A stretch of DNA of 64,000 bases from Eggerthellaceae bacterium (GCA_963634865.1 CAVHDF010000001.1:22294-86293), one strand, 5' to 3'; counted from the first letter of the stretch, positions 26,586 through 59,354 are shown. Translations and numbers: made by a program. The notes: generated from the sequence alone by a model not told the origin.

Positions 26586-29500
26586 ATGACACTTAGAAAT
26601 TTAAGAAAGTTTTTCTCTGGCAAAACGGTCTTGGCGGCTGTTTTGCCGTTGTTATGTTTAGCGGCGGCGCTGCCCGCCTTTTCCCAGACGGCAGAGATTC
26701 GCGCGGCCGGCGTGTATTATAAGGACGGCGCCAACGATATCAACAGCGTGTACTGCAATTGGGACAGCGCAGATATCGTCTCTGACGCAAATTACAGAGG
26801 GGCTGTCACCAATGTGGGGAAGCACCAGACCAATGACCCGTGGGATACCTCGGCCTTGATTGAATACGACCAGCCCTATCCTTCTCCGAAGGATCCGAAC
26901 AGCTATCCGAACCACTGCTTGGCAATGTGCTTTGACGTATACTGCACCAACAAACCGGCCGGGCAGAGCACCTATTCCATCGCTTTCCCGATTCAGCGCA
27001 TTCGCTTTGATATTGCCCGTTATTATGGCTCTAAAGACATTGTCAACCCGGATACCAACCCGGCCATTCGCACAATTAATATGTCCATTATGGACAACAA
27101 AATTAACGGACAGGGCGACCCCTTGGATGTGAAGAATTTTATGTGTGGGTCTTATCACTGTTATGGTGCAGATCCGAATTTTGATGAAACAACCACTTGC
27201 CCTGCACCAAAGTACTATTGTTACGGTGATTCGGATGATTCTGATTGTGTCACGCTGGATGGAAAGACCTCCGCGAAAGTTGTAGACGTTTGTGTAAAAA
27301 GAAAAGCACACGGAACCATGAAGGATACAAGCACCACTTCCAATTGCGTTGTTTTTGACAATAACGGAGCTGCGTATGGAGAACCGATGCGTTTCTGCAC
27401 CTCGTGGGACGGCTCGTATGAAATCATGGGCGAGTTCGGCAAGACCAACGGCCAGTTTGGCTTCCGCGCCAATGTTCACACCGATTTCCCGGGCGACGGG
27501 GACGCTATTGAATCCATTACCATTGATGATACATTCCTCTACCCCGGCGATGCCCAGTATCCTATCCAGGTAGACGTCACCAACGTGCACACGGTACGCG
27601 CCACCGCCACGGTGGTGGGGGTGCTTACCCCGGTACAGGCCACGCCGTACTCTATTGCTTATCGCCTCAGCAAGGACGCTGATGTACGGATGCAGGTGTT
27701 TGACGCTTCGGCCCAGATCCCGTGGACGGGCAGCGACGGCAATGCCACGGGTACTTTCCCAGGGGCCTCGGACAACAGTGCTGCCAATTTGATTTTGGAA
27801 CAGGGCTCCGTGGTACGCCACGTCATTGACTGGCAGCCGCGCTTGGGCGAGGGAATGAAAGGCTCCGACAATGACAAATATATTGTGGAGTCCGAGCAAT
27901 GGGACGGCCGCGATGATAACGGTCGCTTGTTGCCCGCCAACAACTATTTGATTTCTATCCAGGCCAAGAGCCAAGACGAATGGCCGGGCACGGACTTCTC
28001 CCGCGCCGTTACGCGCCAAATTTCGTTGGATCCGCTCAAGCTGACCGACATCCGCGTGCAAGGGCTGAACAAACAGTCCACGGCGTATGCCACTGTGCGC
28101 TATATTCCCACGGAAGGCTCCAAAGTATATTTTGAAGTCTATTCCCCGGGCACCACGTTTGACAGCACTTATACCAAAGGCTATGAAGCCACGGGCACGG
28201 CCCCGGCCGTCAAGACCGGCACGGGCGTGTTGGTGTACCGCAGCGAACAGCAGCGGGCCCGCGCTTTGGACTACCCCGACAAATGGGACGGTCTGTGCCA
28301 CAACGCCAGCGGCTGCGACATCCCGTATGCCGAAGGCACCAAATTGCCGATTTCGGGCACGATTTTTGACGGAACGACCTGCACGGACGGGACCGTTACC
28401 AATCGCAACTGCGTAGTTTCCTATGCCAATGGCGCTCCGTTGCCGGACGGCGACTATGTCTACGTCCTGTGGGCGGAAGTGCCGTACACGGATACCTATT
28501 ATAATGGCGCCGCGTGCTACCCCAATCCGGCGGGTTGCACCACTCCCCGCACGGATGATACGACGACGGCGCAAAACGGCACCTTTACGGGCGTAAAAAC
28601 CCAGCGCTATTACACGGGCGTCTTGCCGGTGGAACGCGGCGTGGTGGACATCACCATTCAGCCGGTCAGCTATTCCACCATTGGCTCCAGCCCGACGGCG
28701 TACGGTTTGGATCCGTTCATCTTTAAATACTCTATCGCCCGTGAGGCCGTGGTCAATGCTTATGTAAAGAACACCGCCGGCCTGACGGTTAAAACTTTGA
28801 CGGACGAGGGGGGTAACACCAATGTCGCCCAGCAAATGAACACCTTGTCTTGGGACGGGCGCGACGACCAGGGTCGCATGGTAGGCCCCGGCACCTATCT
28901 GTTTGTGGTGGAAACCTCGGACCCGATGTTCCCCAACAGCGTCAAAACGCAAGCGTCGGCGATTTTCCCGGTGGACCTCTACCGCGTGGTGGACGTAAGC
29001 ACCACCGACGTGTATGGCGACAGCGAAGCCAAGGCCACGATAAGCTATTCCTTGTCTAAGGCCATGGCGGTGCAGGTCAACGTATATAATAAGGACGTTG
29101 TCATTCCGGCTCCCAAAGCCACGGGCAATGTGGAAACGGAGTCTTGGGGTACGGTGCCTGCGGCGGTGATCAATAAACTGGGCGCCCAACTGCCCGGTTT
29201 AGCGGCCAGCACGGCAATTCCGGCGACGGTCACCTCCACCTTTGTGACGGGGGACACCTTAGGGTATAAGTACTTGTATACCACCCCGGACTTTGACAAT
29301 ACCACAAAAACCTATACCTACTACCGCGTGCGCAAAAATGTAACCGCTGTGGACGAAGCCGCCAATACCGAAACCTATGTGGTGGATGAAGTCTTGACCT
29401 ACACGGTAACGGTGGAACAATGGCCGCCGCGCGTGTGCGATTTAACCACGGACGGCGCTGCGGGGAACAAATTCTTCCACGCCAACGGCTATGTGGACCC

Positions 29501-31307
29501 GGCCACGAACCCGACTTGTATTTATGTAAACGACAAGACCTTTAAAAACTATCCGGCCAATGCCAACGCCGCCAAGTATAACTATACCGAAGGCGCCGCG
29601 CAAACGCTGGACGTGCGCTTGCAACCGGTCAAAACCTTTAACCGCTCGGCCAACCGCGCGGGCGACGGCGTGCGCATTACCGAGGAATGGGACGCGCAAT
29701 ATTTCTATAACCCGACCCCGGTGTCTATCTTGGACGGTGGCAAAAACTCCGTAGAGGCCGTCAACGCCTGCAAAAACGCGACGGACCTGACTAAATGCCC
29801 CTATGAAATGGTGCCCGACGGCCAGTATCCGTTCTACATTGCCGCGCAGACTGACGAAGCGGTGGACTTGTATTACGACCGCACCACGGCCGCTCCGTTC
29901 CGCGATACGGACGACGTGATTCGCCAGACCGGCTTGTACGCCACGGATAAACCCGTTTACCGCGTCAATGTCACCCGCGGCCCGGTGTACTTCTTGGACG
30001 GCACGGTGGCGGTCTACCCCAATGCCCCGCAGTTGTTCAACACTTCGTCCGGCCCGGTGTTTGTGCCGCCGTACGAAATCAACTTTGCTATCTCCCGCGC
30101 CGCTACGGTGGAAGTGGCTATCGTCGCACTGGAAAACAACCTCTGCACCACCACGACCACGCCGGGCGCCACGGGCACCAATGTGCAGTATGCCAAAGCC
30201 GGGGACGTGTGCAAATACTTAAGCACTATGACCATTGTCAACAGCCCCAACTTTGACCCTAATGTGACGCGCAAAATCTATTGGGACGGCACCGATAACA
30301 ACGGCTACTACGTGCGCAACGGCAATTACGAAATCCGCCTGACCGCCAAGAACTACCCCGACGCGGGCTTGTATCAGCCGACCGTCAAGCAAATCACGCA
30401 GAATGTGGACTTGCTCAAGGTGTATGACTTGCCGGAGACGGAGGCCTATGCCATTAACAAACGCGGCACCGATATGAAGATTTCTTACCAAATCTCCGTG
30501 CCGATGAAAGTGGCCATCCAAATCTTTAAACCGGGTACCACCATTTATGACTATCAAAAAGGTACCCTGCGCGACCCGGCCACGGGCAAAGAAGTGACCG
30601 ATATCAATGACGTTTTGGTGCGCAGCATTGTGGGCATTCGCCCGTCCACCACGCTGATTGAAGAAGTGTGGGACGGCACCGACTATGCCCAACAAGACGT
30701 GCCGGACGGCACCTATCCGTTCCGCTTTGTCACGGCGCTGGAATCGGCCGATATTGACACCATCACCGGCGAGATCATCCCCGGCGACGACGCCACCACC
30801 GGCGCAGACCGCAACTGGAAGATTGACCACGTGGCCGATACCTTCCAATATGTCAACCTGCACCGCGCCACAGTGGCCATCGGCGACGGAGAGTTCGTCT
30901 GCGAGGATTGGGAAAAGACGGTCTTCTTCTACCCCAACCCGTTCAAGACGCCCACCGGCACCATGGAAATTACCAAGCTGCCTGTGCCCGGCAAGATGTC
31001 CATTAAGCTGTATAACTTGGCCGGCGACTTGGTGCGCGAGGGCGGTTACCAGTGCGTGGACGCCAACAATATGACGGTCACCATGGGCAACAGCATTGAC
31101 CTCAGCCCGGATAACACCGTCAGCAACACGGTCTACAACGGCACGATGCCCACCCTGCGCAATGCGGCCCTGCGCTGCTTCTGGGACCGCACCAACGACC
31201 ACGGCAAAAAAGTGGCCCGCGGCGTGTACTTTGGCTTGGTGGACTTTAGAGCCCAAAACGGCAGACAACACTGCCAAAAAGTAGTGAAGATTTTGATTCC
31301 CAGATAA
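26586..31307 (+). CDS. Giant exported protein with repeated FlgD-Ig-like modules and T9SS-like C-terminal domain
   Basis: Signal peptide; about eight WDG-type motifs (e.g. WDGRDDQGRMVGPGTY); ends FYPNPF..IKLYNLAGDLVR..WDRTNDHGKKVARGVYF..KILIPR. Confidence 0.85.
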   Translation: MTLRNLRKFFSGKTVLAAVLPLLCLAAALPAFSQTAEIRAAGVYYKDGANDINSVYCNWDSADIVSDANYRGAVTNVGKHQTNDPWDTSALIEYDQPYPSPKDPNSYPNHCLAMCFDVYCTNKPAGQSTYSIAFPIQRIRFDIARYYGSKDIVNPDTNPAIRTINMSIMDNKINGQGDPLDVKNFMCGSYHCYGADPNFDETTTCPAPKYYCYGDSDDSDCVTLDGKTSAKVVDVCVKRKAHGTMKDTSTTSNCVVFDNNGAAYGEPMRFCTSWDGSYEIMGEFGKTNGQFGFRANVHTDFPGDGDAIESITIDDTFLYPGDAQYPIQVDVTNVHTVRATATVVGVLTPVQATPYSIAYRLSKDADVRMQVFDASAQIPWTGSDGNATGTFPGASDNSAANLILEQGSVVRHVIDWQPRLGEGMKGSDNDKYIVESEQWDGRDDNGRLLPANNYLISIQAKSQDEWPGTDFSRAVTRQISLDPLKLTDIRVQGLNKQSTAYATVRYIPTEGSKVYFEVYSPGTTFDSTYTKGYEATGTAPAVKTGTGVLVYRSEQQRARALDYPDKWDGLCHNASGCDIPYAEGTKLPISGTIFDGTTCTDGTVTNRNCVVSYANGAPLPDGDYVYVLWAEVPYTDTYYNGAACYPNPAGCTTPRTDDTTTAQNGTFTGVKTQRYYTGVLPVERGVVDITIQPVSYSTIGSSPTAYGLDPFIFKYSIAREAVVNAYVKNTAGLTVKTLTDEGGNTNVAQQMNTLSWDGRDDQGRMVGPGTYLFVVETSDPMFPNSVKTQASAIFPVDLYRVVDVSTTDVYGDSEAKATISYSLSKAMAVQVNVYNKDVVIPAPKATGNVETESWGTVPAAVINKLGAQLPGLAASTAIPATVTSTFVTGDTLGYKYLYTTPDFDNTTKTYTYYRVRKNVTAVDEAANTETYVVDEVLTYTVTVEQWPPRVCDLTTDGAAGNKFFHANGYVDPATNPTCIYVNDKTFKNYPANANAAKYNYTEGAAQTLDVRLQPVKTFNRSANRAGDGVRITEEWDAQYFYNPTPVSILDGGKNSVEAVNACKNATDLTKCPYEMVPDGQYPFYIAAQTDEAVDLYYDRTTAAPFRDTDDVIRQTGLYATDKPVYRVNVTRGPVYFLDGTVAVYPNAPQLFNTSSGPVFVPPYEINFAISRAATVEVAIVALENNLCTTTTTPGATGTNVQYAKAGDVCKYLSTMTIVNSPNFDPNVTRKIYWDGTDNNGYYVRNGNYEIRLTAKNYPDAGLYQPTVKQITQNVDLLKVYDLPETEAYAINKRGTDMKISYQISVPMKVAIQIFKPGTTIYDYQKGTLRDPATGKEVTDINDVLVRSIVGIRPSTTLIEEVWDGTDYAQQDVPDGTYPFRFVTALESADIDTITGEIIPGDDATTGADRNWKIDHVADTFQYVNLHRATVAIGDGEFVCEDWEKTVFFYPNPFKTPTGTMEITKLPVPGKMSIKLYNLAGDLVREGGYQCVDANNMTVTMGNSIDLSPDNTVSNTVYNGTMPTLRNAALRCFWDRTNDHGKKVARGVYFGLVDFRAQNGRQHCQKVVKILIPR

Positions 31308-31319
31308 AAATAGGAATTT

Positions 31320-32288
31320 ATGAAGATGAAAAAATCATTTCTGTTTGCTTGTTTAACCTTGGCCTTGGCGGCTCCGTCCGCCTGGGCCGACAGCTATGCC
31401 GATGCCGGTACCAGCGCGAGCGCGTTTTTGAAAATTAACGCCGGCTCGCCCCGGGCGCAGGCCTTGGGCAATGCCTATGTGTCTATTGCCGACGGGCCGG
31501 AAGCTTTGTTTTGGAACCCGGCCGGCGCGGCCTCTGCCACCACCAAAGAAATCCAGTTTGCTTATTTGGACTATTTGCAAGGCTATAAGGCCCGCACCTT
31601 GGCGTATTTGCAGCCCATGGGCAAAACCATTATCGGCGTAACGGCCAACTACATGGATATGGACGGCTTTGACTACCGCGACGAATCGGGCCGTGCCCAG
31701 CCGGTGGTCGGCAAACCGGTGCAAAACTTTGTAGGCAGCCTGTCTTTGGCGCGCGGGTTCTTTAACCAGGGCTTGCAGCTGGGGGCGACGGCCAAGTACA
31801 TCAACGAAAAATTGGATACCTACCGCTATACCAACGTCGGTTTTGACGTCGGCGCCAAGGCCCGCCCGTGGAAATGGCTGGGCTTGGGCGGTGCGATGGT
31901 CAACATTGGCGACAAAGACGAAATGCCGCGCGGCTGGCGCGTGGGGGCCGATATTGACACCAAATATTGGACCTTGTCGGGTGAATATATGAAATACCGC
32001 GACGACAAAGGCCGCTACGGGATTGGCTTGGAAGTGCACATTCCCGAGGACTTGCTGCAGGTGGCCCGTTTTGACTTGCGCGTCGGCTATTACGACCGCG
32101 AAAGTACCGGCTACAGCGACAGCGAAAACTTAAAGAGCCTGGGGTTGGACTCCACCTCTAAAGTTTCCTTTGGTTTTGGTATTTACAGCTCCGAACTGTT
32201 TGGGTATGGCGCCAGCATTGATTACGCCGTGACCCCGTTCGGTGCGTTGGGCACCTCGCAGCAGATTGCGGTGTCCGTGCAGTTTTAA
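31320..32288 (+). CDS. PorV/PorQ-like (FadL-type) outer-membrane barrel
   Basis: FLKINAGSPRAQALGNAYVSIADGPEALFWNPAG; DYAVTPFGALG; C-terminal Phe. Confidence 0.85.
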   Translation: MKMKKSFLFACLTLALAAPSAWADSYADAGTSASAFLKINAGSPRAQALGNAYVSIADGPEALFWNPAGAASATTKEIQFAYLDYLQGYKARTLAYLQPMGKTIIGVTANYMDMDGFDYRDESGRAQPVVGKPVQNFVGSLSLARGFFNQGLQLGATAKYINEKLDTYRYTNVGFDVGAKARPWKWLGLGGAMVNIGDKDEMPRGWRVGADIDTKYWTLSGEYMKYRDDKGRYGIGLEVHIPEDLLQVARFDLRVGYYDRESTGYSDSENLKSLGLDSTSKVSFGFGIYSSELFGYGASIDYAVTPFGALGTSQQIAVSVQF

Positions 32289-32323
32289 GGCGTAGGGCCG
32301 CCTAAGCGGCGGCGGGAATACAA

Positions 32324-32518
32324 GTGAAAAAACAAAGCGGCGTTTTGCAACGCGTTACACGCGGTAAAAAAGGCCAAACCGCCATAGAGTATGTCATTAC
32401 GGCGGGCGCTTTGTTTGGTGCGTTTTTAGCGTTTTATGCCTTGTATTCCAACTTGGTCCCGCAGCAGTTTGACCAAGGCGCCAAAGTGATTTTGTCGGTA
32501 TACGATACAGGTAATTAA
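32324..32518 (+). CDS. Flp-type pilin
   Basis: KKG/QTAIEY followed by hydrophobic helix. Confidence 0.8.
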   Translation: MKKQSGVLQRVTRGKKGQTAIEYVITAGALFGAFLAFYALYSNLVPQQFDQGAKVILSVYDTGN

Positions 32519-32541
32519 TTTTAAAAAATCAGGAGGAGTTT

Positions 32542-32766
32542 ATGAAGTTTATCATTGCCATGCAAAACAGATTAAACGCCGTAAAACAAGCCGCGTTTAA
32601 TTGCGTCAAAAAACAAGAAGGTCAGAACACGATTGAATACATCATCATGCTCGGCGTGGTGGTGGGTATCGCCTTGCTGGTGGGTACGCTGGTTAAAAAT
32701 ATGATGCCGGAACTCTTTGAAAACATCAAGAGCAAAATCATCGGCGGCATTAACTCCGGCGACTAA
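32542..32766 (+). CDS. Flp-type pilin (probable major pilin)
   Basis: EG/QNTIEYIIMLGVVVGIALLV; strong AGGAGGAG RBS. Confidence 0.88.
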   Translation: MKFIIAMQNRLNAVKQAAFNCVKKQEGQNTIEYIIMLGVVVGIALLVGTLVKNMMPELFENIKSKIIGGINSGD

Positions 32767-32777
32767 TTCGTAAGAAT

Positions 32778-33266
32778 ATGAAACTCTTTCGTAGGGGGCG
32801 TGCGGGGCAGGTGACGGTGGAATTGATGCTCATTCTGCCGGTGCTGATGTTGATGATATTCTTTATTTTGGAATACGGCAACATCGCCTACCACACGATT
32901 ATCGCCAACCACGCCTCCTATGAATTTGCCCGCATCGGCGCGCTGACCGGGGTCAAAAAACCCAGTGGCCGCCCCAATGTGAGCACGATGTTAACTAAAA
33001 TTAACGCAGCCAAACAAAAGGTGTTCGGCGCCGACGCGCAGCGCATTACCGTGCGCGTCAAGGTGCAGTCCACCGGCCGGGACCCGTTGTATTCCCGGCA
33101 TACCCATGAAGATGTTATTGTGACGGTGACGTATCCGGTGCGCTTGGCGTTCCCGGGGACCAGTTGGCTTTTGGCCAGCGACCCGAAAAAAGAAGGCATC
33201 CGCAAAATAGAAGCCACTACGCGCATGCCGCTGGAAAAGGTGTACGCCAGCTCAGACCAAAAATAA
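32778..33266 (+). CDS. TadE-like pseudopilin
   Basis: RAG/QVTVELMLILPVLMLMIFFILEYG, ARIGA, VTVTYP. Confidence 0.88.
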   Translation: MKLFRRGRAGQVTVELMLILPVLMLMIFFILEYGNIAYHTIIANHASYEFARIGALTGVKKPSGRPNVSTMLTKINAAKQKVFGADAQRITVRVKVQSTGRDPLYSRHTHEDVIVTVTYPVRLAFPGTSWLLASDPKKEGIRKIEATTRMPLEKVYASSDQK

Positions 33267-33313
33267 GTGGCGAAAATTTGTTTTTATTATACTGGGAGTA
33301 ACTAGGAGAAAAG

Positions 33314-34066
33314 ATGAAAAAAGGAATTATGCTTCCGTTGGTGTTGGCAATACTTGCCGCCCTCGTTTATGCCGTGATTGTGCATAGCGCTGAAAAGAAA
33401 TTGCAGGCTTCTAAGAGCATCAAAACGGTGCTGGTGCCCGTGCGCGATATCAAAGAGCGCGAGGTCATCAAGCGCGACTATTTAAAACGCGTGCAAGTGC
33501 CGGCCGCCTACGTGCAAAAGGATGCTTTTACGTGGACGACAGATGCGGACTTTGCCAAAATTGACAATGCCATTGCGCGGGTGCAAATCCCCAAAGGAAA
33601 CCAAATTTCCAAATATGCCGTGACCTCGCTTTCTCCCGAGGCCGGGCTGTCCAGCAAAATCCCAGTGCAGATGAGAGGCTTTGTTATTACGGTAGATTCC
33701 AACATGGCCAGCATGATTAAACCCGACGACAACGTGGATATCTTGTTGACCTTTGAAGCCGTCATGAAGAGCGGCGCCCGCCAAAAAGTGACGGTGACGC
33801 TGCTGCAAAACGTTAAGGTGTTGGGCGTAGGCTCAGACTTGGGCCAAGGCTTAGACGCCAAGGGCGCGGCTGCCATGAAGAGCAAGGAAGAGGACGCCTC
33901 CGCCTATACCGACACCAGCGCACTGAGCTTGGCGCTTTCTCCGCGCGATGCGCAGTATTTGGCTTTGGCCAAAGACGAAGGCACCCTGACGGTCATCTTG
34001 CGCTCGCACGGCGACGTGACCAATTACTTGATGGAGATTGCCACCTTTGAAAAATTATTTCAATAA
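33314..34066 (+). CDS. cpaB: Flp pilus assembly protein CpaB/RcpC
   Basis: N-terminal TM, SAF-like VLVPVRDI, IKPDDNVDILL, LLQNVKVLGVG, LTVILR. Confidence 0.88.
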   Translation: MKKGIMLPLVLAILAALVYAVIVHSAEKKLQASKSIKTVLVPVRDIKEREVIKRDYLKRVQVPAAYVQKDAFTWTTDADFAKIDNAIARVQIPKGNQISKYAVTSLSPEAGLSSKIPVQMRGFVITVDSNMASMIKPDDNVDILLTFEAVMKSGARQKVTVTLLQNVKVLGVGSDLGQGLDAKGAAAMKSKEEDASAYTDTSALSLALSPRDAQYLALAKDEGTLTVILRSHGDVTNYLMEIATFEKLFQ

Positions 34067-34072
34067 ACAGGA

Positions 34073-34819: not shown

Positions 34820-34829
34820 ACTTAATTTT

Positions 34830-37097
<2,268 letters not shown>

Positions 37098-37098
37098 C

Positions 37099-38727: not shown

Positions 38728-38730
38728 ACC

Positions 38731-39621: not shown

Positions 39622-39635
39622 AGAGGATAAAATTT

Positions 39636-46517: not shown

Positions 46518-46546
46518 TTTTGACTCTGTACGGGAGCGAACAACAC

Positions 46547-47233: not shown

Positions 47234-47237
47234 GTCT

Positions 47238-47417
47238 ATGCGCAGAATAAAAGCAGCTTGGCACCGGCTCCGCCGCAACCGCCGCGGGCAGGCCTCTATT
47301 GAATATATGCTGATGTTAGGCAGCATATTGGTCATCTTGTCTGCTTTTATTACCGCGTTTCATAATGATATTGTCCGCTGGATGTTTGCCTTTGTCGGGC
47401 AACTGTTGCCAAAATGA
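47238..47417 (+). CDS. Flp-type pilin (59 aa, absent from the supplied ORF track)
   Basis: Manual translation MRRIKAAWHRLRRNRRG/QASIEYMLMLGSILVILSAFITAF...LLPK; ATGA overlap with next gene. Confidence 0.85.
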   Translation: MRRIKAAWHRLRRNRRGQASIEYMLMLGSILVILSAFITAFHNDIVRWMFAFVGQLLPK

Positions 47418-49056: not shown

Positions 49057-49076
49057 CCGCTGCAGCGGTGGCGGGC

Positions 49077-49105
49077 TTGACAAAACGCTCAAATCCGTTT
49101 ATACT
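49077..49105 (+). promoter_or_regulatory. Near-consensus sigma70 promoter for the downstream array
   Basis: TTGACA-17 bp-TATACT. Confidence 0.75.
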
Positions 49106-49216
49106 GTTAGTAGCGCCAGGGGCGCTAAAGATTTAAACTCTGTGTTTGAGCGTATGAGTCGTCTTCTTACGGGTCAACAAGAGTGATTTTTTATATTTAT
49201 GTAAAGGGAGCCTATT

Positions 49217-50749: not shown

Positions 50750-50759
50750 GAGCTAACAT

Positions 50760-52223
50760 ATGAAAATCTTAACATGGATCTTGGATAAATCGGGCAAAAT
50801 GGCCCTTTCCGGCCTGCAAGCGGTGGGTTTATCCGCCGCGGTGGGATTGGCCGGCATCGGGGCGTGGCAACTGCTCAGCGCACCGGAAGACGTCAACCCG
50901 AATACGGCTTTTTCATCCGGTGCCGATGATGAAGTGGTGTTCGTGGCGGGTGGCGCTGCGGGCGGCGCTTACAGCGGCGTAGGCTATGGCGAAGGGGGCG
51001 AAGTACGCTCCGGCATTCGCGCCACGCTGTCTAAGGATATGCAGCTGATGAACAGCGATTTGCAACGCGTGCAAATCCCGGATACGCCGCAGGTCATCCA
51101 AGACGAGCAGAAAATCCAAGCTTTTAAAATGGACGGCGCCACCGAGGGCCTGGGCTTAGGGGCCAATGGCGCTTCTGCCTTGGGCGCAGGGCCCAACGGA
51201 GCTATGGGTTCTTTGCAGGATAAAATTGCCGCGTTAGAGGCCAATGCCAAAGAGCAAGCCGCTAAAGCGCAGGCGGCTGCCGGCGGGAAAGACGCCGTGG
51301 CTGCCGCGGCGGCGGCCTTAAATAAATCCGCGGCGGGCAAATACGGCATGAATGCCGGCATGGCCCGTGCGGGTGGACACAATTTAAACTCTACCCCCTT
51401 GCAGGCTTCCACGGGGATGGAAGGCGAAAGCTTGCGCGGCGGTGTGCTGGGCGGTAACCAAGCCAATCAGCGTTTGGCCGCGGCCAATAGCCCGGTGGCT
51501 GCCTTTCAGGGCGGGCGTGACGCTACGGTCTTAGACGGTCGCCGCTTTAGCGGAATGAACTCCTTAGAGGGCTTGCGCAAACAGTCGGCCGAAGTGGCCG
51601 CCAACCGCAACCGCTCCGTCAACGAGGGTACCCGCGTCTTTATGGGTGGGGAAAAACTCTCCGGCGGCATCCAGCTGGTGGGGGAGAACGTGACCACCGG
51701 CGGCGGGGCCAGCTCGGAAGATTTTAAAGACGTCGCTATGCCCAATTTGAGCGGGGTGCAGTCGGACGCAGAAAGTTACGAGGCTGCGCGTGAATCGCTG
51801 CGCCGCGACATCCGGGACTTTGTAAAGAGCTGCAACAACTGGTCTTGGGTTCCCATATATTTGGATATAGGCACTCGTGCGGCGTGGAAAGTAAAAGCCC
51901 GCAATGAACTCAATAAAAAGATTGATAATTTTAGAAATATGTGGGGAAAGTCTAGCTATGAGAAAAACAATAGCCAGGGCGAATACTCCGATATGGCCAG
52001 CAAAGTGGTCAAGAAAATGTTAGGCGCCATGTATACCCCGGGCAGACCTAAGAAGTTGGCCCAGGACTACAGCGTGAGATACTTTGCTGTGGACGGGGCT
52101 TTTTGGAAGAAAAATTGGGATACGCCGACGGACCAAGAAAAGGCGGATTTCAACAAAAAGTATTCCAATAGCTATCAATACAGTGGTGCGTTAAGAGACC
52201 ACTATGCCAACGAAATAAAATAA
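50760..52223 (+). CDS. Gly/Ala-rich membrane-anchored protein, paralog of 52251
   Basis: N-terminal hydrophobic helix; shared QS..VAANR.RS.NE...VFMGGE.LSGGIQ motif. Confidence 0.8.
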   Translation: MKILTWILDKSGKMALSGLQAVGLSAAVGLAGIGAWQLLSAPEDVNPNTAFSSGADDEVVFVAGGAAGGAYSGVGYGEGGEVRSGIRATLSKDMQLMNSDLQRVQIPDTPQVIQDEQKIQAFKMDGATEGLGLGANGASALGAGPNGAMGSLQDKIAALEANAKEQAAKAQAAAGGKDAVAAAAAALNKSAAGKYGMNAGMARAGGHNLNSTPLQASTGMEGESLRGGVLGGNQANQRLAAANSPVAAFQGGRDATVLDGRRFSGMNSLEGLRKQSAEVAANRNRSVNEGTRVFMGGEKLSGGIQLVGENVTTGGGASSEDFKDVAMPNLSGVQSDAESYEAARESLRRDIRDFVKSCNNWSWVPIYLDIGTRAAWKVKARNELNKKIDNFRNMWGKSSYEKNNSQGEYSDMASKVVKKMLGAMYTPGRPKKLAQDYSVRYFAVDGAFWKKNWDTPTDQEKADFNKKYSNSYQYSGALRDHYANEIK

Positions 52224-52250
52224 GTTTATTTTTAAGGAGCCGGAGGAATT

Positions 52251-53708
52251 ATGAAAGTCTTACAAATCTTAAAAAGCCGCATAGGCAACGTCAGCAAGGC
52301 GGGCCTGTTGGGCTTGGGCGTAACGGCCGGGTTGGTGGGCCTGAACCTGTACAATTACGCGACGGAAGGCCCCGCGGCCCAAGAGCAGAAAATCCGCTCT
52401 CTGTCGCAGATTATCGCCTCCGGCGACGCGGTGCCAGCGGAATACTCCGGCATCAATATCAGCCGGGGCCAAAACGAGTTTGCCACCGCCGAGGAAGTCT
52501 CCGCCCGCGAAGGCCGTATGTTTGACGGCGGAGAGGGCGCTGTGGCTGCTTTGAGCGGGATTTCCGTGCGGGGCACGGCTTTAGGGCAGGGCGAAGGCGG
52601 TTTGGGCATGGGTGAAAATGCTGCCACCGCCATTGCCGGCTCCCGCGCAGCGGCGGGTGCGGCTGCACCGGACGGCTCGGCCATTGCGGCTGCCGCGGCG
52701 GAAAAAGCCAAAGGCACCCAAATTAACAAATTGGGCGAAGAAAGAGCGGGCGGCTTGCAGCGTGCCGCCATTACCCGCGCTTCGGGCTCTAGCTTAAGCA
52801 CGGGTGGCCAAGGGTTCGGTGCGTCCGCTACGTCGTCCACTCGCAGCGCAGCCCGCAGTGAGGCGGCCTCCCGGATAGGGGCCTCTTCTATCAGCGGAGC
52901 CATGCCCGAAGGCAGCACCTTGGTGGCCTCTAACGGCAGTTTCCGCGGGGCGGCTTCGTCCTCTTTCACCCCGGCGGGGCGCAATGCCCGCGTGGGCAAA
53001 GGTTTGAACTCCAAAGAAGGGCGCGACTTGCGCTCCATTGCCGTGCAGTCGGGCAAAGTGGCCGCCAACCGGCACCGCTCCGATAACGAAGCGGCCCAGG
53101 TCTTTATGGGTGGGGAGCGTCTCTCCGGCGGTATCCAAACCACGGACGGCAGCGTAACCACCGGCGGTACGGCCAGTACGGAAGATTTTGAAGGAGATTT
53201 GCAAGCCAAGCAGGCCAATTTGGACAACAGCATCAGCGAAATTGACACCACGGAGCAAGAGCGTGCCGCTAAACGCAGCCAGTTGGGCAAAAAATTGATT
53301 GCGCTGTTGTTTGCCACAATTGCGGCGATGATTGCCATTTCTACTTTGAGAAACATGAGCCCGTGGGGCACCGTGGCGGCTGCGGTGGTTACGGCGGCAA
53401 TGGCCCTTTCCTTAGTTTTGTTCTTAGTTGACTGTGGTAAGTACATGGATAAATACCATTCGGATGCTGCCAGTATTTCATTTATGGTTTGCGGCGTCTT
53501 GCTTATGGCGGCTGTGGGTATTGCGTGGGTCAAGCCTGTATCCAAGTGGATTAGCAAAATTGTCGGCAAAGTCGGCAAGGGCTTGGGATTAGGCGAAGGC
53601 TTTGTGGCAAACGCAGGGTCCTCTGCTATGGGCAAAGCGGTTAGCCAAGCAAAGACAGACGTGGTTGAGGCCGTCTCAGAGGACGGCAGTGGCTTAAGTA
53701 ACGGCTGA
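52251..53708 (+). CDS. Gly/Ala/Ser-rich membrane-anchored protein with C-terminal hydrophobic helices
   Basis: Same shared motif as 50760; three hydrophobic segments near the C-terminus. Confidence 0.8.
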   Translation: MKVLQILKSRIGNVSKAGLLGLGVTAGLVGLNLYNYATEGPAAQEQKIRSLSQIIASGDAVPAEYSGINISRGQNEFATAEEVSAREGRMFDGGEGAVAALSGISVRGTALGQGEGGLGMGENAATAIAGSRAAAGAAAPDGSAIAAAAAEKAKGTQINKLGEERAGGLQRAAITRASGSSLSTGGQGFGASATSSTRSAARSEAASRIGASSISGAMPEGSTLVASNGSFRGAASSSFTPAGRNARVGKGLNSKEGRDLRSIAVQSGKVAANRHRSDNEAAQVFMGGERLSGGIQTTDGSVTTGGTASTEDFEGDLQAKQANLDNSISEIDTTEQERAAKRSQLGKKLIALLFATIAAMIAISTLRNMSPWGTVAAAVVTAAMALSLVLFLVDCGKYMDKYHSDAASISFMVCGVLLMAAVGIAWVKPVSKWISKIVGKVGKGLGLGEGFVANAGSSAMGKAVSQAKTDVVEAVSEDGSGLSNG

Positions 53709-53716
53709 GGTAAACT

Positions 53717-54010
53717 ATGGCAAAGGTAGATCAAGTGTTGAAGCGTATTTTTGCTTGGGCCGTGCTACTGATTATCGTGGCTGGCGGGGTGGTGGCGTAT
53801 GCGCATTTTAATATGCAGTACCGCCAAGCCCAGCGGGAATTGATTTACATCAAAGCCCGTGAGCAGGTCGCACAAGAAAAGGCCCAGCGCCAGCGCGACT
53901 ATCAAAAGCGCCTGCGCGAACGGGAGCTGCGCCAGCAGTTTAACCGCGGCCGCGTGGTGGACATCAGCGGACGGGCCGCCCTGCCCACCGGGTCCGGCCC
54001 GACCAAGTAG
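53717..54010 (+). CDS. Small TM + basic coiled-coil protein
   Basis: GAGG RBS; IFAWAVLLIIVAGGVVAY; Arg/Gln/Glu-rich helix. Confidence 0.75.
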   Translation: MAKVDQVLKRIFAWAVLLIIVAGGVVAYAHFNMQYRQAQRELIYIKAREQVAQEKAQRQRDYQKRLRERELRQQFNRGRVVDISGRAALPTGSGPTK

Positions 54011-54054
54011 CTATTTGACCTGGGCCGCCGCACTCCGGCGGCCCGGAGGAATAT

Positions 54055-55587
54055 ATGAAACAGGAAAAAAACAATTTCCCGCCCGCAGAAGAGCCGCATT
54101 TGGCTCCGCTGACGGTGCGCCAACCTCTCACGCCACCCCCGGCTGCCCGGCCGTCTTTTGAAAAGCGCTGGCAGCGCAAGCGGTATTTGGCCGGGGCGGC
54201 CCTTGTTTTTTTCTTGTTTGCGATTATATTTATAATACCGGTGGGACATTTGCCGGGGCTGCGCCATTTGGCGTGGATGATGGGTTTTAGTGTGCAAGAT
54301 ACCCAAACCATCAGCTTTGCCAAAGCTTTGCTGACGTGGGTGGGCGATGGGGAACGCATAACTGCCGCTCGGGCTGAGACGGCGGGTGCGTTATCGGTCT
54401 TTGACAGAAATGTGCAAGAGGGCTTTAACGCCGCGGGGCCGCGCTCGGGGTTGTTTGACCTGGCGGCGGTGAACGCTTCGCGTCGCGCGCGTGGGTTGCG
54501 CGCGGACGGGCTGTCCGGCGCGTACGAGGCTTTGGACGGGGAAGAAGGCCCCGCCGCCATGACCCGCCGCGTCAACGGTTGGAGCCAAGAGGCCCGCCAA
54601 GCAGACGCCGCCAAAAACCGCACCGAAGTATACTTTGGCCAAGACGCTGATGTAATGGCCCGCACCGCGGCGGAGAACCGCCGCACGCGCGGCTCTTCAG
54701 ACACTATTGCCTTGTTGCCCAAGGCTCAGGTGGCGGGGAGCGTTCCATTCAACTGGTTTGGCGAAGCGGTGGAAAAAGCCACCATGCAAAGCTTAAGCGG
54801 GCTGGATGATTCGCTCGGGCAAAAAAGCCGCACGGGCAGCACCGCGCTGAGCCGCTCCGGCGGGAACCTGACCGCCGGGCAAAAGGCCCAGCAGGATTTA
54901 GCCCGCGTGTGGCTGATGAGCAGCGCGTCGGAACGGGCCAAACAGCTGATGCTCAAAAAGCAGCTGGCCTTGGCGGGGTATGTTTCTATGGAGATGCCCA
55001 AAAAGGTGTTTGACTCCATGGGCATGGGCTCGGGGGTGCGTTTGCAGGGCGATGAAATGGTCGGCCAGTTTGAAGACGCCAACCGCCGTTTGCTTAATGA
55101 CGAGCAATGCCGCAAACTGGGCGAAAGCGCCAACGTGACCGTGAACAACAATTTAGAGAAATCCCGCGAGCTCATCCGGCAGGTGCGTGCCTCAGTGCCC
55201 AAGAGCTGCGGGGCCGTGCAAGGGTGGCGCGGCAATTTGACCGCCGTGCAGACCCAATGCAAAGAAGTGGGGGACACCTTTTCTAATATGAGCACCGCTT
55301 GCGGCGTGCAATTAAAGTCCAAGGGCCGCTGCGAGACGACGTATTTGAATTCGTACGCGGATGATTTAGACGCCGCTTGTGAGGCCTTGGCCGCGGCAGA
55401 AGCGGCTGACCCGCAAGACGAAGAGGCCTTAAAAGAGGCCCAAGATTTGGTCAAACGGACCATTAACGGATTTGACGAAAAACAGCTGGACAATACGTTT
55501 AACATCGGCGTAGACAAGCTGCCCGCGGGGGAGAATGACTTCTTCCCGGTCATGGAAGGCAGCACCGGGTGGATCAACCCGGGTTGA
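54055..55587 (+). CDS. Single-pass membrane protein with Cys-containing helical C-terminus
   Basis: GGAGG RBS; TM YLAGAALVFFLFAIIFIIPV; six C-terminal Cys. Confidence 0.8.
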   Translation: MKQEKNNFPPAEEPHLAPLTVRQPLTPPPAARPSFEKRWQRKRYLAGAALVFFLFAIIFIIPVGHLPGLRHLAWMMGFSVQDTQTISFAKALLTWVGDGERITAARAETAGALSVFDRNVQEGFNAAGPRSGLFDLAAVNASRRARGLRADGLSGAYEALDGEEGPAAMTRRVNGWSQEARQADAAKNRTEVYFGQDADVMARTAAENRRTRGSSDTIALLPKAQVAGSVPFNWFGEAVEKATMQSLSGLDDSLGQKSRTGSTALSRSGGNLTAGQKAQQDLARVWLMSSASERAKQLMLKKQLALAGYVSMEMPKKVFDSMGMGSGVRLQGDEMVGQFEDANRRLLNDEQCRKLGESANVTVNNNLEKSRELIRQVRASVPKSCGAVQGWRGNLTAVQTQCKEVGDTFSNMSTACGVQLKSKGRCETTYLNSYADDLDAACEALAAAEAADPQDEEALKEAQDLVKRTINGFDEKQLDNTFNIGVDKLPAGENDFFPVMEGSTGWINPG

Positions 55588-55739
55588 CACAGGGGCCGAA
55601 TATAGCTTAAATGTAAGTATCGGCTCTACCGATTTAGTAATGCAGTACCCGGCCTTAACGCGCCCAGGCGGCCGTTAAGACCCAGCAGTACCCGCAGAAG
55701 CTTTGCGGGAATACGGCAGTTATCTCTAAGGAGACTGTT

Positions 55740-58700
55740 ATGGCTGAGAATAAGAAGGATTCCTTCACGTTCAGCGATAAGATTAAAAACAGCAAGCCTG
55801 CTTTTAATCCGTTCTCTAAACGTGTTTCCTCCAAAATCGGCAGCAACGGAAAGCCCAAAAAGACCCTTTTTGAGCGCACCCGCCGCGACGCGCCTTTCTT
55901 CGTCGCTGCAGCTGCTGCCTTGCTGATGCTCCCGTTCCTGTATAAATACAGCGGCAGCATCAACGAAGGAGTGATTGTACCTCCGGGCTCGGAGGACTCC
56001 GTTTTTGACCCCGAACGCTATGGGTTTAGCCCCAGCAACGAGGACCCGAACGGACAGATTGCACAAATGGCCGGGCGCGACCCCTTGAGCCTGATCAAAG
56101 GTTGGGGCTCTGCCGAACCGGAAGAAGACCCCCAGATGTACGACGTGGACCGCCGCGACGGTTTGGACGATACGTATACGCCCTCTGCCCCGACGGCCAA
56201 CGATTCGCCCCGGGCGTATGCTCCGGCGGCTACGCGCGCCGCGTTCCAACGCAACCCGACCAAGATTAAAGAGTTGGGTTCTGCCTCTATGAACCTGCGC
56301 GGCGGCGGCGGTGGGTTTGGCCGCTTTGGCGGTGCCAACCTCAAACGCGCGGCGAACCAAAACTCGGCCGGCGCCCCCAAACAGGGCACCAAGCCGGTGT
56401 CTTTACAACCGTTGCGCGCGGCGGATAAACCGTCCCGCTCTTACTTTGGGCAAAGCAGCGCCGCTCAGGCCCGCGCTTCGCGCGACGCCATGGGCAAGGC
56501 CGACGCTAAAACCGCTCTGCGCGATGCTATGTTTAAACCCGTGGAAAACGGCCGCTTAGGCGGTTTGGGCACGGGCGACTTCGCCTCTGGCGGCGGCTCG
56601 GGCAAGTTAGACATCACCCACGATTACAAAGGCATCACCCCGTGGTGGTGGGACATGATGAAAGAACGCGCCCAAAAGAAATGGGAGTGGAAATACTTCC
56701 TGTGGAGAAAGAACTTGCTTGAACCCTTGATCAAGGACGTCTTAGCCACGGGGTTGACTCATCTCTTGAACTGTGCCATTTGGGGTAACGCTGATGGGGA
56801 CATGGACTATTTCCTCGGAGGGGCTCCTGGAACAAGTAAAGAGGGGTTTTGTCAGGGCATTAAAGAATCTGAATGGGACGAAGCTGTTGCCCGAGCCAAA
56901 GCAGAGGGTAAGGATAGACCGTGGGGCTCTTTCCCCAATTCGGAGGCTAATTGCCGCCGCAACATGAACCTCGGAGACGACGTGAAAGTGAAGTTTGAAA
57001 AAGGCAGCTCTGTCGTGGGCGGAAAAGGTGTCATCGGAGCGAGATTGTCTTGCTTGGGTGGTGTGTGGCGAGGTGGTAAAAATGCAGGAGCCACCCTGGT
57101 AGATGATCGCCTCTCTTGCCGGGCTGTAGATACGACGCATAACTTTGAATTGCAGACCAGTGGTAAGGCCGCCAGCTGGCGTTATAAATACCACGTCATA
57201 GTAGCTAAAAACTATGTGCCGTTTGACAATGCCGGTACGCACTACCTCTGCGGTATGGGCAATAAAAATGCCAATAAACAGAGTGTGGCGGCGGTAGAGA
57301 ATGCCCAGGGCGCCGAAAGCGATATTAGAAAGAAAGACGCCACCAAAAAGACATATAGCCGTTACGCCGCGGATAATTATGACGGCTTGCAGCGTGGCGA
57401 TGTTAACGACGCGTGCGTCATCTATGTGGCGCAAGGACCTGCCTTGAAATGGCAAGACTTCAAAGCCAAAACCATGACGCTGTTGGAGCAATTGGGGCTG
57501 AAGAAAAACGGAAGAGCTGTTTCCGGAGAAGAAGCCTTCAATGCTTTGCAGCTGTACTTTATTGAGGGCTATGCTTTCAAGCACCCGATGTCTAAAGGCG
57601 GCAATGAAACCAAGGCCATCAATGACAATGGCAAAATGGTGAAAGTGAGAAACATGCCGGTGGATGTCTTGCCCATGGCATATGTAGACTTTGAGAGCTA
57701 CTATGTCTTGCGCCGCAAGAATGACTCTAAAGAAGACTCTGCCAAGCTCAATGATAAGTGGCGTGTGTATGAGGGGAATTTCACGCATGTGGACGGATCA
57801 CCCCGCACCACTTTGGCTGGAGCTAACCAAAGAGTGGATTCTGCCCGTGTGGTTTGCCCGTTCGCTAACTTCCAAATCAAAGCGCAAGCGATAGATTCCT
57901 TGAGCAGCTTGGTCGCGGACTTGACCTTTAACCCGAAAGTGCACGGCACTACGGGGGGCGGCATCAAGGTAACCCTGGACGTGCCGGAAGCCGGCTTGAA
58001 CGGCATCCCGGTGAAGGGGGCTATGGAAGGCGGAGAGGACAACAAGACGGTGGCTACGCATCGCTTTGAGCCGAATGCCGCGCAGATGAAAGCCTTAAAT
58101 GACGCTTTGGCCCAAAACGGGCAGATTACCGCCAAGTGGACGGCAAGACGTGGGGACAAGTTGTCCCAAGATACGGCCGATTATGCCGGCAATGAGCTGT
58201 TCGTAGAGCAACCGGAAGAAACCGCCTCTTGCCAAGACGGCGAAACAATGCAGTCTACGGACGAGCAAAATTGCACTTGGACGGGCACCTGCAAGGCCGG
58301 TCAGTGGAGCATTGTTAAGGATGATCCCAACTGCGGGCAAGCTGGTTCCAACGGTGGCAATGGAAATGGCAATGGGAATGGTACCGATGTACAAGGAATG
58401 AGACCGTCCCAACCCGTAAGCTTTTTCCAAGGGTTCAACTCAATTCCTGCCAGTGCGGCGGACCGCTTGAACGCCGATGTGAGAAAAGCGGGTGAGAAGA
58501 ACACCGCCGCCAAGCAATGGGGCCAGTGCAAAATAGACATGGACATCGCCACCAAGAAATTGTCTTATGTGGACGATTCCGTTAAAGCGCTGTTGGCCGC
58601 GGCGAAGGCGAAATACGATGCGGCCAATAAAGAAAACGGCACGTACTTGGACTACGATGAAGCCAATGTAACCGTAGCCAACCTGCTGGATGCTATGTTG

Positions 58701-59354
58701 ATTACCGAGCAGAAAGCCGTGTCTAAAAACGCAGTATGTATGTTGGCTAAGAGCATTGCCGTGAACACGAAAGACCCCAGCGTTCCGTCCGCGGGCAACA
58801 ATATGTTCGGTGCCTTTGCGGCCTTTATGGGCAATGACTCTTCTTTCTTCCCGGCGCACTGGGTCAGAGTGAACGGCACGAAAACGCAGGATTTGCGCTT
58901 TACGGGGTGTCTGAATGGCAAAGATATAGAAGCGACTAAGCCGTACCACTACGGGCACTATAACTGGAACCACCATCGCTTGGGTGATGATTCCCAGCAA
59001 AATGACCGCGCTCCGTATGAGCAAGTCTTGGCCAGCGGCATGTGGAGACAGGCTCCGTTGAAGGCCTTGGCGGAAGGAAAAGATTTCCGCCGTGCAACGA
59101 GCATTGGGCAGTTGTCCTCCAGCAACGATACGTTGGATGACGCCAACAGAAAGCTCTATCACGCTGCGTACAGAGACCTGTTCCAAACCTCCGGTTCTTG
59201 TAACTACAGGAATTCGGACACGATGTCTACCGCCGATGCTATGGCGTACATCCAAGCTTTGTGCGACAACGGCACGAACCTTAAACCGGAAAACGGTAGT
59301 AAGTTAGCGTGCGGTGCCAGATACAGAGCTTCCCAATTCGCCGTAGGCGAATAA
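55740..59354 (+). CDS. Large single-pass surface protein, Gly-rich linker then long Cys-rich region
   Basis: AAGGAG RBS; TM FFVAAAAALLMLPFLY; ITPWWWDMM; GNGNGNGNG tract. Confidence 0.82.
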   Translation: MAENKKDSFTFSDKIKNSKPAFNPFSKRVSSKIGSNGKPKKTLFERTRRDAPFFVAAAAALLMLPFLYKYSGSINEGVIVPPGSEDSVFDPERYGFSPSNEDPNGQIAQMAGRDPLSLIKGWGSAEPEEDPQMYDVDRRDGLDDTYTPSAPTANDSPRAYAPAATRAAFQRNPTKIKELGSASMNLRGGGGGFGRFGGANLKRAANQNSAGAPKQGTKPVSLQPLRAADKPSRSYFGQSSAAQARASRDAMGKADAKTALRDAMFKPVENGRLGGLGTGDFASGGGSGKLDITHDYKGITPWWWDMMKERAQKKWEWKYFLWRKNLLEPLIKDVLATGLTHLLNCAIWGNADGDMDYFLGGAPGTSKEGFCQGIKESEWDEAVARAKAEGKDRPWGSFPNSEANCRRNMNLGDDVKVKFEKGSSVVGGKGVIGARLSCLGGVWRGGKNAGATLVDDRLSCRAVDTTHNFELQTSGKAASWRYKYHVIVAKNYVPFDNAGTHYLCGMGNKNANKQSVAAVENAQGAESDIRKKDATKKTYSRYAADNYDGLQRGDVNDACVIYVAQGPALKWQDFKAKTMTLLEQLGLKKNGRAVSGEEAFNALQLYFIEGYAFKHPMSKGGNETKAINDNGKMVKVRNMPVDVLPMAYVDFESYYVLRRKNDSKEDSAKLNDKWRVYEGNFTHVDGSPRTTLAGANQRVDSARVVCPFANFQIKAQAIDSLSSLVADLTFNPKVHGTTGGGIKVTLDVPEAGLNGIPVKGAMEGGEDNKTVATHRFEPNAAQMKALNDALAQNGQITAKWTARRGDKLSQDTADYAGNELFVEQPEETASCQDGETMQSTDEQNCTWTGTCKAGQWSIVKDDPNCGQAGSNGGNGNGNGNGTDVQGMRPSQPVSFFQGFNSIPASAADRLNADVRKAGEKNTAAKQWGQCKIDMDIATKKLSYVDDSVKALLAAAKAKYDAANKENGTYLDYDEANVTVANLLDAMLITEQKAVSKNAVCMLAKSIAVNTKDPSVPSAGNNMFGAFAAFMGNDSSFFPAHWVRVNGTKTQDLRFTGCLNGKDIEATKPYHYGHYNWNHHRLGDDSQQNDRAPYEQVLASGMWRQAPLKALAEGKDFRRATSIGQLSSSNDTLDDANRKLYHAAYRDLFQTSGSCNYRNSDTMSTADAMAYIQALCDNGTNLKPENGSKLACGARYRASQFAVGE

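Follow-up and report, generated by a model that had tools for sequence, protein, structure and literature searches.

What kind of surface apparatus does a gut bacterium with a small genome build from some 33 kb of co-oriented genes that begin with a giant surface protein and run on through the components of a pilus machine? The question is raised by a stretch of 64,000 nucleotides, hereafter the window, deposited under the name Eggerthellaceae bacterium (GCA_963634865.1; G000:C1:22294-86293 in our numbering), which belongs to a 1.46-Mb metagenome-assembled genome that is 94% complete and whose proteins have their closest relatives in entries labelled uncultured Elusimicrobium, Elusimicrobiales and Candidatus Avelusimicrobium. 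All sizeable genes between window positions 26586 and 59354 lie on the plus strand, and a preliminary description had read them as one undescribed system, based on Tad (tight adherence) components, that displays or delivers variable proteins. We find that the 33 kb is not one unit and splits into a conserved core (26586-49056) and a downstream array (49217-59354). As judged from its sequence, the core is a real and complete, if modified, Tad/Flp (type IVc) pilus cluster. We consider it probable that this machine and its regulators are joined throughout the order to a surface pair, formed by the giant protein with a type IX-like C-terminal domain (CTD) and an outer-membrane beta-barrel, and that the array is likely a separate matter.

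The genes for the giant and the barrel are followed by two flp genes, a TadE-like gene and those for CpaB, a secretin, a TadZ-TadA fusion, TadB and TadC. After TadC come a TPR protein (TPR457), a HAMP protein, a 96-aa protein with three transmembrane (TM) helices, a 320-aa lipoprotein-like protein, a sensor kinase, a hybrid kinase and a LuxR-type regulator. The run then ends with a third flp gene, a TadG-like gene and tadE176, beyond which lie the array genes u510a, u487, u485, u97, u510b and u1204 (Table 1). No intergenic gap within the core exceeds 89 nt, and the gene content given in the preliminary description is all present at its coordinates and on the plus strand. Gene families were assigned with Pfam and NCBIfam. 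Flp prepilins are recognized by the processing motif G/xxxxEY, which three small proteins of the core carry; the two at its front score under the cut-offs of the Flp Pfam models, flp74 giving weak matches to PF16982 and PF04021. The third fills an apparent 180-nt gap between the genes for the LuxR-type regulator and the TadG-like protein, and escapes any listing of open reading frames (ORFs) whose length threshold exceeds 59 aa, for instance one of 80 aa. Together with three minor-pilin-like proteins they make up the six pilin or pseudopilin genes of the preliminary description, a count that holds once the 59-aa protein is included, and all six have either a G/xxxxE(Y) motif or a TadE/TadG-like N-terminus.

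The remaining components are those of a Tad machine with several alterations. The TadA half of the fusion protein matches PF00437 at 211.6 bits (cut-off 24.9) and TIGR03819 at 333 bits, below the equivalog cut-off of 373, and its ParA/MinD-like TadZ half matches PF01656 at 32.5 bits (cut-off 25.4). The fusion is a single stop-free open frame in relatives across the order wherever contigs permit, and at least 13 loci whose titles do not name Elusimicrobia contain matches to both halves as well, either as fusions or as neighboring genes. TadB can be aligned over its full length in other families. The secretin has RcpA (8odn) as its best solved relative, with residues 87-247 of the query aligned to residues 210-370 of the chain, which is the pore domain only; the N-terminal domains are absent and the length is conserved across the order. 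Because only the pore domain is present, the periplasmic part must come from other proteins, for which CpaB and the TadB extension would be candidate suppliers. No TadV/CpaA prepilin peptidase is encoded in the window, and the sole PF01478 peptidase of the genome is a 278-aa open frame on contig C15; a peptidase of its own counts as accessory to a Tad locus, and according to PMC6668835 prepilin peptidases can be shared between systems.

The arrangement of the core is not due to chance, since its gene order is kept in relatives. A best match to tadZA, one best copy each, was found in 41/41 genomes of the order, with identities of 85-98% inside the genus and of 55-59% for two further families. 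We took the surroundings from eight relatives and mapped all of the window proteins onto them by tblastn: the run from the giant to tadE176 is colinear in three members of the same genus (G021, G020 and G012) and three of another family (G029, G025 and G037), the contig of G026 ends after tadZA, and in G027 a rearrangement follows the TPR gene. The full run, together with the upstream genes for a solute-binding protein (SBP) and a GGDEF protein, is colinear in G046, a complete single-contig genome of a third genus. tadE176 is the final gene of the conserved core, which ends there in G046 and in G041. A DNA run with a pig gut metagenome label (X1) contains a relative's contigs of up to 8.4 kb across 26409-45999 of the window, mostly less than 95% alike to it, with 4 of 27 aligned pieces at 95-99%.

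What sets this cluster apart stands at its head. The giant matches the FlgD_ig model PF13860 at 68.4 bits over two stretches, and a WDGxDxxG...GxY motif, counted by eye, occurs about five times in it, but BLASTP of the protein against itself revealed no internal repeats; the "giant Ig-repeat protein" of the preliminary description is, as its sequence reads, such a protein at the level of motifs only. Several observations suggest that its C-terminus is a CTD of the kind that the type IX secretion system (T9SS) employs. NCBIfam reports a weak match to the PorZ C-terminus (E = 4e-5). The motifs YPNP, YNLAGDLV, W.RTN..GK.VA.GVYF and KILIP, which are in the style of the PNP, G-x-Y and K-x-x-K motifs of type-A CTDs, are kept in 15/15 orthologues (alignment A6), and the pattern PNP ... 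G ... W..N..G ... G ... Q...K.L.P is invariant among them over the last ~130 residues. The CTD of PorU (6za2) is also matched by a profile of this alignment (E = 0.024), and the two align in the register that a type-A CTD should show. Neither in this genome nor in that of G021 does the A6 profile match any protein but the giant. Three larger relatives have 14-21 matches each, and in each the tad-linked one is far the best (137-165 bits versus at most 40); the tad-linked CTD forms an orthologous group of its own.

The barrel gene ends 35 nt before the first flp gene. Its product is nearer to PorQ (NF033711, 68 bits, cut-off 220) than to PorV (18.6 bits, cut-off 250). The single sequence found no match among PDB sequences, and a profile of 16 barrel orthologues (A5) found one, PorV (6h3i_F, E = 6.7e-5). 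The described role of PorV and PorQ is CTD binding. We therefore infer that Sec exports the giant and that this adhesin-like protein remains at the cell surface, with its CTD predicted to be seated on the PorQ/V-like barrel in the manner of PorZ on PorQ. The association of the giant and PorV-like genes with tad, proposed in the preliminary description, extends across the order and to more distant Elusimicrobiota. A TadZA profile identified 80 public loci, of which nine carry Elusimicrobia or Elusimicrobiota titles and 71 are titled with other phyla or with no phylum. The giant and barrel genes lie upstream of tad in 7/7 of the Elusimicrobia loci with enough flank (L016, L017, L018, L020, L022, L024 and L047); of the other two, L021 has the barrel only before its contig ends and L019 has no upstream flank. 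Neither gene was found beside tad in any of the 71 loci with non-Elusimicrobia titles.

A 1794-aa SprA/Sov-like ORF (locus L096) is encoded on another contig, between comF/waaA/heptosyltransferase genes and lptF, and its gene is single-copy in 41/41 Elusimicrobiales genomes. Given this setting among the lipopolysaccharide (LPS) genes lptF and waaA, the SprA-like protein may have another role. The SprA_N model PF14349 had no match in the genome, and its control was also silent. The PorU sortase model NF033707 matched nothing in the genome except, with 15.7 bits, the Ig module of the giant itself.

The relationship of the array to the core is different from that of the giant and barrel. Across the family, u1204 was detected in 109/121 genomes and in 5/10 genera. 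In g1, the genus of the present genome, 9/9 genomes with both genes on one contig place u1204 downstream of tadZA at 18-21 kb and on the same strand; a further 14 have their u1204 match on a contig other than that of tadZA, and one has no match. In genus g15 they are linked in 4/4 same-contig cases and on different contigs in four others. One member of the latter genus, G041 (probably the same genome as G078), has unrelated genes of opposite strand after tadE176 and carries the array on another contig, directly before TPR571 and ksgA, genes that adjoin the u1204 homologue in G020 as well. In genus g14, tadZA and u1204 share a contig and are 230-970 kb apart in 4/4 genomes, with the u510a homologue at a third place far from both (3/3 same-contig cases). 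The u1204 homologue of G046 is solitary. It is situated about 4.5 kb downstream of a separate cluster of secretin, PilB-like ATPase, PilC-like and pseudopilin genes (L103, 291-9731), with four opposite-strand genes in between, a proximity that may be due to chance. In other families, 0/16 genomes yielded u1204 with this query, and the Tad core is retained in all 16. What follows tadE176 there is one N-anchored, Gly/Ala/Ser-rich protein, which hhalign relates to u510a with a probability of 0.5% and which gave no BLASTP match with distant u510a relatives. Because related genera keep the array far from the pilus genes, we think it likely that the array is a separable envelope module of the Elusimicrobiaceae that adjoins tad only in some genera, and the linkage of array to tad asserted in the preliminary description fails in g14 and in G041.

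The array encodes fast-evolving, N-anchored and largely disordered proteins that are found only in the Elusimicrobiaceae. The six unknown membrane-anchored proteins counted in the preliminary description all have an N-proximal hydrophobic helix, and several have long Gly/Ala/Ser-rich stretches; their anchors are uncleaved and N-in, being neither prepilin nor Sec-cleavable signals. Relative to G021 the array proteins are 38-49% identical, as compared with 94% for tadZA. The paralogues u487 and u485 share 48% identity over 95 aa. For u510a, none of 214 homologues has a Pfam domain, the few that are named come from Elusimicrobiaceae or Elusimicrobia, a profile search retrieved only 125 cluster representatives among 1.84 billion proteins, and the AlphaFold2 model has a mean predicted local distance difference test score (pLDDT) of 56, with 287/510 residues below 50, too disordered for a fold search. 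The 605 homologues of u1204 likewise include none with a Pfam domain, the few named ones being from Elusimicrobiaceae or Ca. Avelusimicrobium, and their alignment (A2) shows a cytoplasmic tail and TM helix that are nearly invariant next to a variable, Cys-rich ectodomain. Residues 301-1204 were modeled by AlphaFold2 with a mean pLDDT of 75 and a predicted template-modeling score of 0.44. The sole PDB-matching part of this model, found with VIA-wide, is a generic Ig-like sandwich (model residues 410-518) whose Z of 8.2 falls in the range which that tool rates as common, the other domains having been barely tested; Foldseek returned no match for the model at E <= 0.001, and u1204 had no usable match in the ESM Atlas and none among PDB sequences. 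Consensus matches to a promoter (TTGACA-17-TATACT, 49077-49105) and to a terminator-like hairpin with T-run (59418-59439) fall between tadE176 and u510a and after u1204, respectively.

Other ways of assembling these observations have to be weighed against the one that we favor. The closest to the preliminary description would make the whole 33 kb a single Tad-derived, type II secretion-like apparatus that pushes the giant and variable proteins out through the short secretin. Co-orientation and short gaps throughout, the constant 18-21 kb spacing between tadZA and the array in g1 and g15, and the coexistence of Cys-rich ectodomains in the array with a possible DsbA-like gene in the core would all be in keeping with such an apparatus, and the near-invariant tail and TM helix of u1204, coupled to a variable ectodomain, would fit a recognition signal. 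We nevertheless regard it as highly improbable, because the array and the core come apart in g14, where u1204 and u510a are also apart from each other, and in G041, because no u1204 homologue was found in the 16 other-family genomes, which retain the core and whose one positional analogue has no profile similarity to u510a, and because the array proteins have uncleaved N-in anchors and a promoter-like site before the first of them. The modified Tad apparatus of the preliminary description thus survives as the core, with the 10-kb array not to be counted in, and for its suggestion that variable proteins are delivered by Tad we found no evidence. Adjacency in two genera and the invariant u1204 tail make a functional tie between array and Tad possible.

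The remaining alternatives concern the giant and barrel. One is that the barrel belongs structurally to the outer-membrane complex of Tad, standing in for RcpB or for the missing secretin N-domains, and that the giant is a docked, pilus-associated adhesin, the pair thus operating with the pilus and not alongside it. In its favor are the position of the pair immediately upstream of flp in every well-flanked Elusimicrobia locus and in none of the 71 loci with other titles, the lack of all N-terminal domains in the secretin and the distinct orthologous group of the tad-linked CTD, but the only homology of the barrel is to the CTD binders PorV and PorQ, and CpaB with the extended TadB could already provide the periplasmic parts, so we think the proposal improbable. 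We are similarly doubtful of a hybrid organelle, in which the Tad machine and a PorQ/PorZ-style anchoring pair drawn from the type IX toolkit cooperate and the giant depends on Tad, through its ATPase, CpaB ring or short secretin, for its export, positioning or energy. A more serious possibility, although still one that we would bet against, is that giant and barrel are cargo and shuttle of a reduced, Tad-independent type IX-like route through SprA, their adjacency to tad reflecting the shared regulation of two adhesive organelles. The single-copy SprA-like ORF in every genome of the order, the conserved CTD motifs and the 14-21 weaker CTD-like matches elsewhere in the genomes of the larger relatives all argue for it; the missing PorU and GldM (the control for the latter being silent), the sub-threshold score of an SprA-like protein that may serve another purpose among its LPS neighbors, and an order-wide adjacency to tad that suggests more than chance argue the other way.

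We think it probable, then, that a complete Tad machine is joined to a CTD-giant/barrel pair, and several points weigh against this interpretation. The giant CTD scores 18 bits against TIGR04183, below the cut-off of 23, and the barrel 83.6 bits against the PorV/PorQ family model NF033709, just below the cut-off of 90; as the barrel, CTD and SprA are all under the NCBIfam curated cut-offs, their family membership rests on profiles and motifs. The SprA-like genes are unlinked to the Tad locus, and GldM (TIGR03517) had no match, although its control was silent in every genome, this genome is 94% complete and GldL was not searched. With regard to the array, its linkage to tad in g1 (9/9) and g15 (4/4) is tight and its u1204 tail near-invariant, and the promoter and terminator sites that would set it apart are consensus matches: promoter-like counts are near the shuffled expectation, and terminator-like counts exceed it by about 3 standard deviations in 25500-45400 and by 1.6 in 45000-64000. 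Finally, the expression evidence consists of short contigs of relatives from a single RNA library (X17), mostly 85-95% alike to the window, which occur in 30/30 bins of 26000-45999 and do not thereby show transcription.

According to the favored interpretation, the ATPase would polymerize Flp by way of the TadB/TadC platform, the CpaB ring and the short secretin, with the TPR protein taking the part that TadD plays for RcpA. Expression would be set by the GAF-GGDEF enzyme encoded upstream and by the cluster's own sensor kinase, hybrid kinase and LuxR-type regulator. The giant would be exported by Sec and would probably cross the outer membrane via the SprA/Sov-like protein encoded on the other contig, after which it is predicted to be retained at the outer membrane through binding of its CTD by the neighboring PorV/PorQ-like barrel. 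As neither a PorU sortase nor a GldM motor turned up, we suppose that the anchoring of the giant is non-covalent, like that of PorZ by PorQ.

Table 1. Genes of the Tad/Flp core, its upstream neighbors and the downstream array, in window coordinates, with the SprA/Sov-like ORF of another contig (contig coordinates) in the last line.
Feature	Position	Strand	Characteristics
Solute-binding protein (SBP) gene	22989-24194	+	Upstream of giant with GGDEF gene
GAF-GGDEF diguanylate cyclase	24197-25696	+	PF00990 147 bits, plus GAF domain; directly upstream of core
Giant surface protein, 1573 aa	26586-31307	+	Signal peptide, FlgD-Ig-like modules, C-terminal T9SS type-A-like CTD ~1447-1573
PorV/PorQ-family outer-membrane beta-barrel	31320-32288	+	Signal peptide; C-terminal ...QF; 12 nt after giant
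Flp prepilin 1, flp64, 64 aa	32324-32518	+	G/QTAIEY then hydrophobic helix; kept in relatives
Flp prepilin 2, flp74, 74 aa	32542-32766	+	G/QNTIEY; kept across order
TadE-like minor pilin tadE162, 162 aa	32778-33266	+	PF07811 45.7 bits, over cut-off
CpaB/RcpC	33314-34066	+	TIGR03177 114.4 bits, cut-off 71
Minimal secretin, 248 aa	34073-34819	+	Signal peptide and secretin domain only; PF00263 142.8 bits
TadZ-TadA fusion, 755 aa	34830-37097	+	PF01656 on 14-230, PF00437 on 382-661
TadB, 542 aa	37099-38727	+	~250-aa N-terminal periplasmic extension; PF00482 on 377-500, 63.5 bits; signal-like N-terminus
TadC	38731-39621	+	PF00482 57.7 bits, one stretch
TPR457, TadD position	39636-41009	+	Signal peptide; TPR matches; weak match to N-terminal TPR part of Amuc_1098; kept across order
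HAMP membrane protein	41022-42137	+	Two TM helices, no kinase domain; PF00672 26 bits; order-wide identity 36-37%
96-aa protein	42153-42443	+	Three TM helices; kept within family
Lipoprotein-like 320-aa protein, possibly DsbA-like	42468-43430	+	DSBA E = 0.048, 13.9 bits, under cut-off; kept across order
Sensor histidine kinase	43520-45403	+	dCache-HAMP-HisKA-HATPase (Pfam)
Hybrid receiver-histidine kinase	45351-46517	+	Pfam
LuxR/GerE-type response regulator	46520-47233	+	Pfam; 70-72% identity in other families
Third Flp prepilin, 59 aa	47238-47417	+	G/QASIEY; PF04021 30.1 bits, cut-off 23.7
TadG-like, 371 aa	47414-48529	+	PF13400 17.4 bits, under cut-off; order-wide identity 28-31%
TadE-like minor pilin tadE176, 176 aa	48526-49056	+	PF07811 19.9 bits, under cut-off; G/QATTE motif
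u510a, 510 aa	49217-50749	+	First array gene; N-in anchored, mostly disordered
u487	50760-52223	+	Gly/Ala/Ser-rich membrane protein; no Pfam match; paralogue of u485
u485	52251-53708	+	Gly/Ala/Ser-rich, three C-terminal TM helices; paralogue of u487
u97	53717-54010	+	Small, N-anchored, charged-residue-rich (sequence features)
u510b	54055-55587	+	N-in anchored, Cys-containing ectodomain (sequence features)
u1204, 1204 aa	55740-59354	+	N-in anchored; cytoplasmic tail and TM helix, Cys-rich ectodomain
TPR571	59452-61167	+	TPR (Pfam); goes with array, not tad
SprA/Sov-like ORF, 1794 aa	G000:C3:7406-12787	-	TIGR04189 124.7 bits, below cut-off 200

The accessory genes suggest how the machine might be controlled. 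The GAF-GGDEF enzyme is likely to provide a cyclic di-GMP (c-di-GMP) input to the cluster, and both it and the SBP may belong to the cluster's regulation: the two genes also immediately precede the giant in G046 (44% and 56% identity), and they are upstream of it in same-genus loci as well. An Rfam search at E <= 1 found no riboswitch, such as one for c-di-GMP, upstream of the giant in 25650-26650, save for a chance miRNA match. Between the GGDEF gene and the giant there are 889 nt, in which a minus-strand ORF of 94 aa with a GIY-YIG nuclease domain stands by itself (25713-26000; PF01541, 59 bits). Within the core, the redox protein of the preliminary description is present as a gene, for which the DSBA match in Table 1 offers weak support of a redox identity, and a search against PDB sequences found no match for it.

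A few observations on the surroundings of the cluster may be added. In another family (L008, L010 and L013) an S41/PDZ-like lipoprotein of about 370 aa is encoded downstream of tadE176; its sole homologue here is a CtpA-like S41 peptidase encoded at 20523-21959 on the plus strand, 4.6 kb upstream of the giant. Other families also have two more conserved genes before the giant, for proteins of roughly 230-450 aa and 560-600 aa, the latter with a coiled-coil-like region, which were located at 13824-19979 of L007 (G029) and in the equivalent regions of G025, G026, G037 and G027; this genome contains no homologue of either. A 231-aa ORF (11027-11722, plus strand), located apart from the Tad cluster, has an N-terminal methylation motif of type IV pilin-like character (PF07963, 33.6 bits).

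How far is this system a known one? With the Tad/Flp systems of Aggregatibacter (flp-tad-rcp), Caulobacter (cpa) and Pseudomonas (RcpA-TadD) it shares the Flp G/xxxxEY motif, TadE/TadG-like proteins, CpaB/RcpC, a secretin nearest to RcpA, TadZ, TadA, TadB, TadC and a TPR protein. It differs from them in having TadZ and TadA as one polypeptide, a 248-aa secretin without N-domains and a TadB with 250 additional N-terminal residues, in the embedded HAMP, kinase and LuxR genes and the absence of TadV from the locus, and in the PorV/Q-like barrel and CTD giant at its head, a feature of 0/71 loci with non-Elusimicrobia titles. The barrel family, the CTD-style motifs and the SprA/Sov-like ORF resemble type IX attachment parts (the PorV shuttle, PorQ-PorZ and type-A CTD cargo), whereas GldM and PorU were not detected (with a silent control for GldM), the genome has one CTD protein, and barrel, CTD and SprA-like protein are all under cut-offs. 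To our knowledge, no T9SS has been described from this phylum, and in the part of the literature that our search covered no report was found of Elusimicrobia having their own, nor anything in print on the addition of a PorV/Q barrel and a CTD protein to Tad. "Undescribed" therefore holds for these additions; Tad systems in Elusimicrobia as such are already mentioned by Denise et al. 2019 (PMC6668835).

Two further comparisons are instructive. The TPR protein and the secretin weakly match the N- and C-terminal parts, respectively, of the Amuc_1098-type type IV pilus outer-membrane protein of Akkermansia (NF042912), but here they are separate genes, five genes apart, and score 27.6 and 66.3 bits against a cut-off of 750. 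Kil of Myxococcus is a Tad-like machine for contact-dependent prey killing. The present locus has Tad-family parts in common with it, but Pfam and NCBIfam revealed no toxin-like domain in the run and no Kil-named family was matched, Kil-specific features not having been looked for, and nothing links the locus to the antagonism that the preliminary description had entertained.

Tad pili are major colonization organelles, and type IX parts are regarded as a specialty of the Bacteroidota and the wider Fibrobacterota-Chlorobiota-Bacteroidota (FCB) group, so the pairing at the head of this cluster is unusual. About 10 kb of array genes should not be counted as part of a Tad system on adjacency alone. 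If the giant were to depend on Tad, type IX parts would here be seen for the first time to cooperate with a type IV filament machine. In gut species with genomes of 1.1-1.9 Mb the giant is the only such CTD protein, as shown for the present genome and for G021, and these small bacteria probably have in the giant/barrel pair their main means of adhesion. The finding suggests that anchoring by a CTD on a barrel can work outside a full T9SS, and it offers a compact system in which to ask what a CTD and a PorV-family barrel do without motor and sortase.

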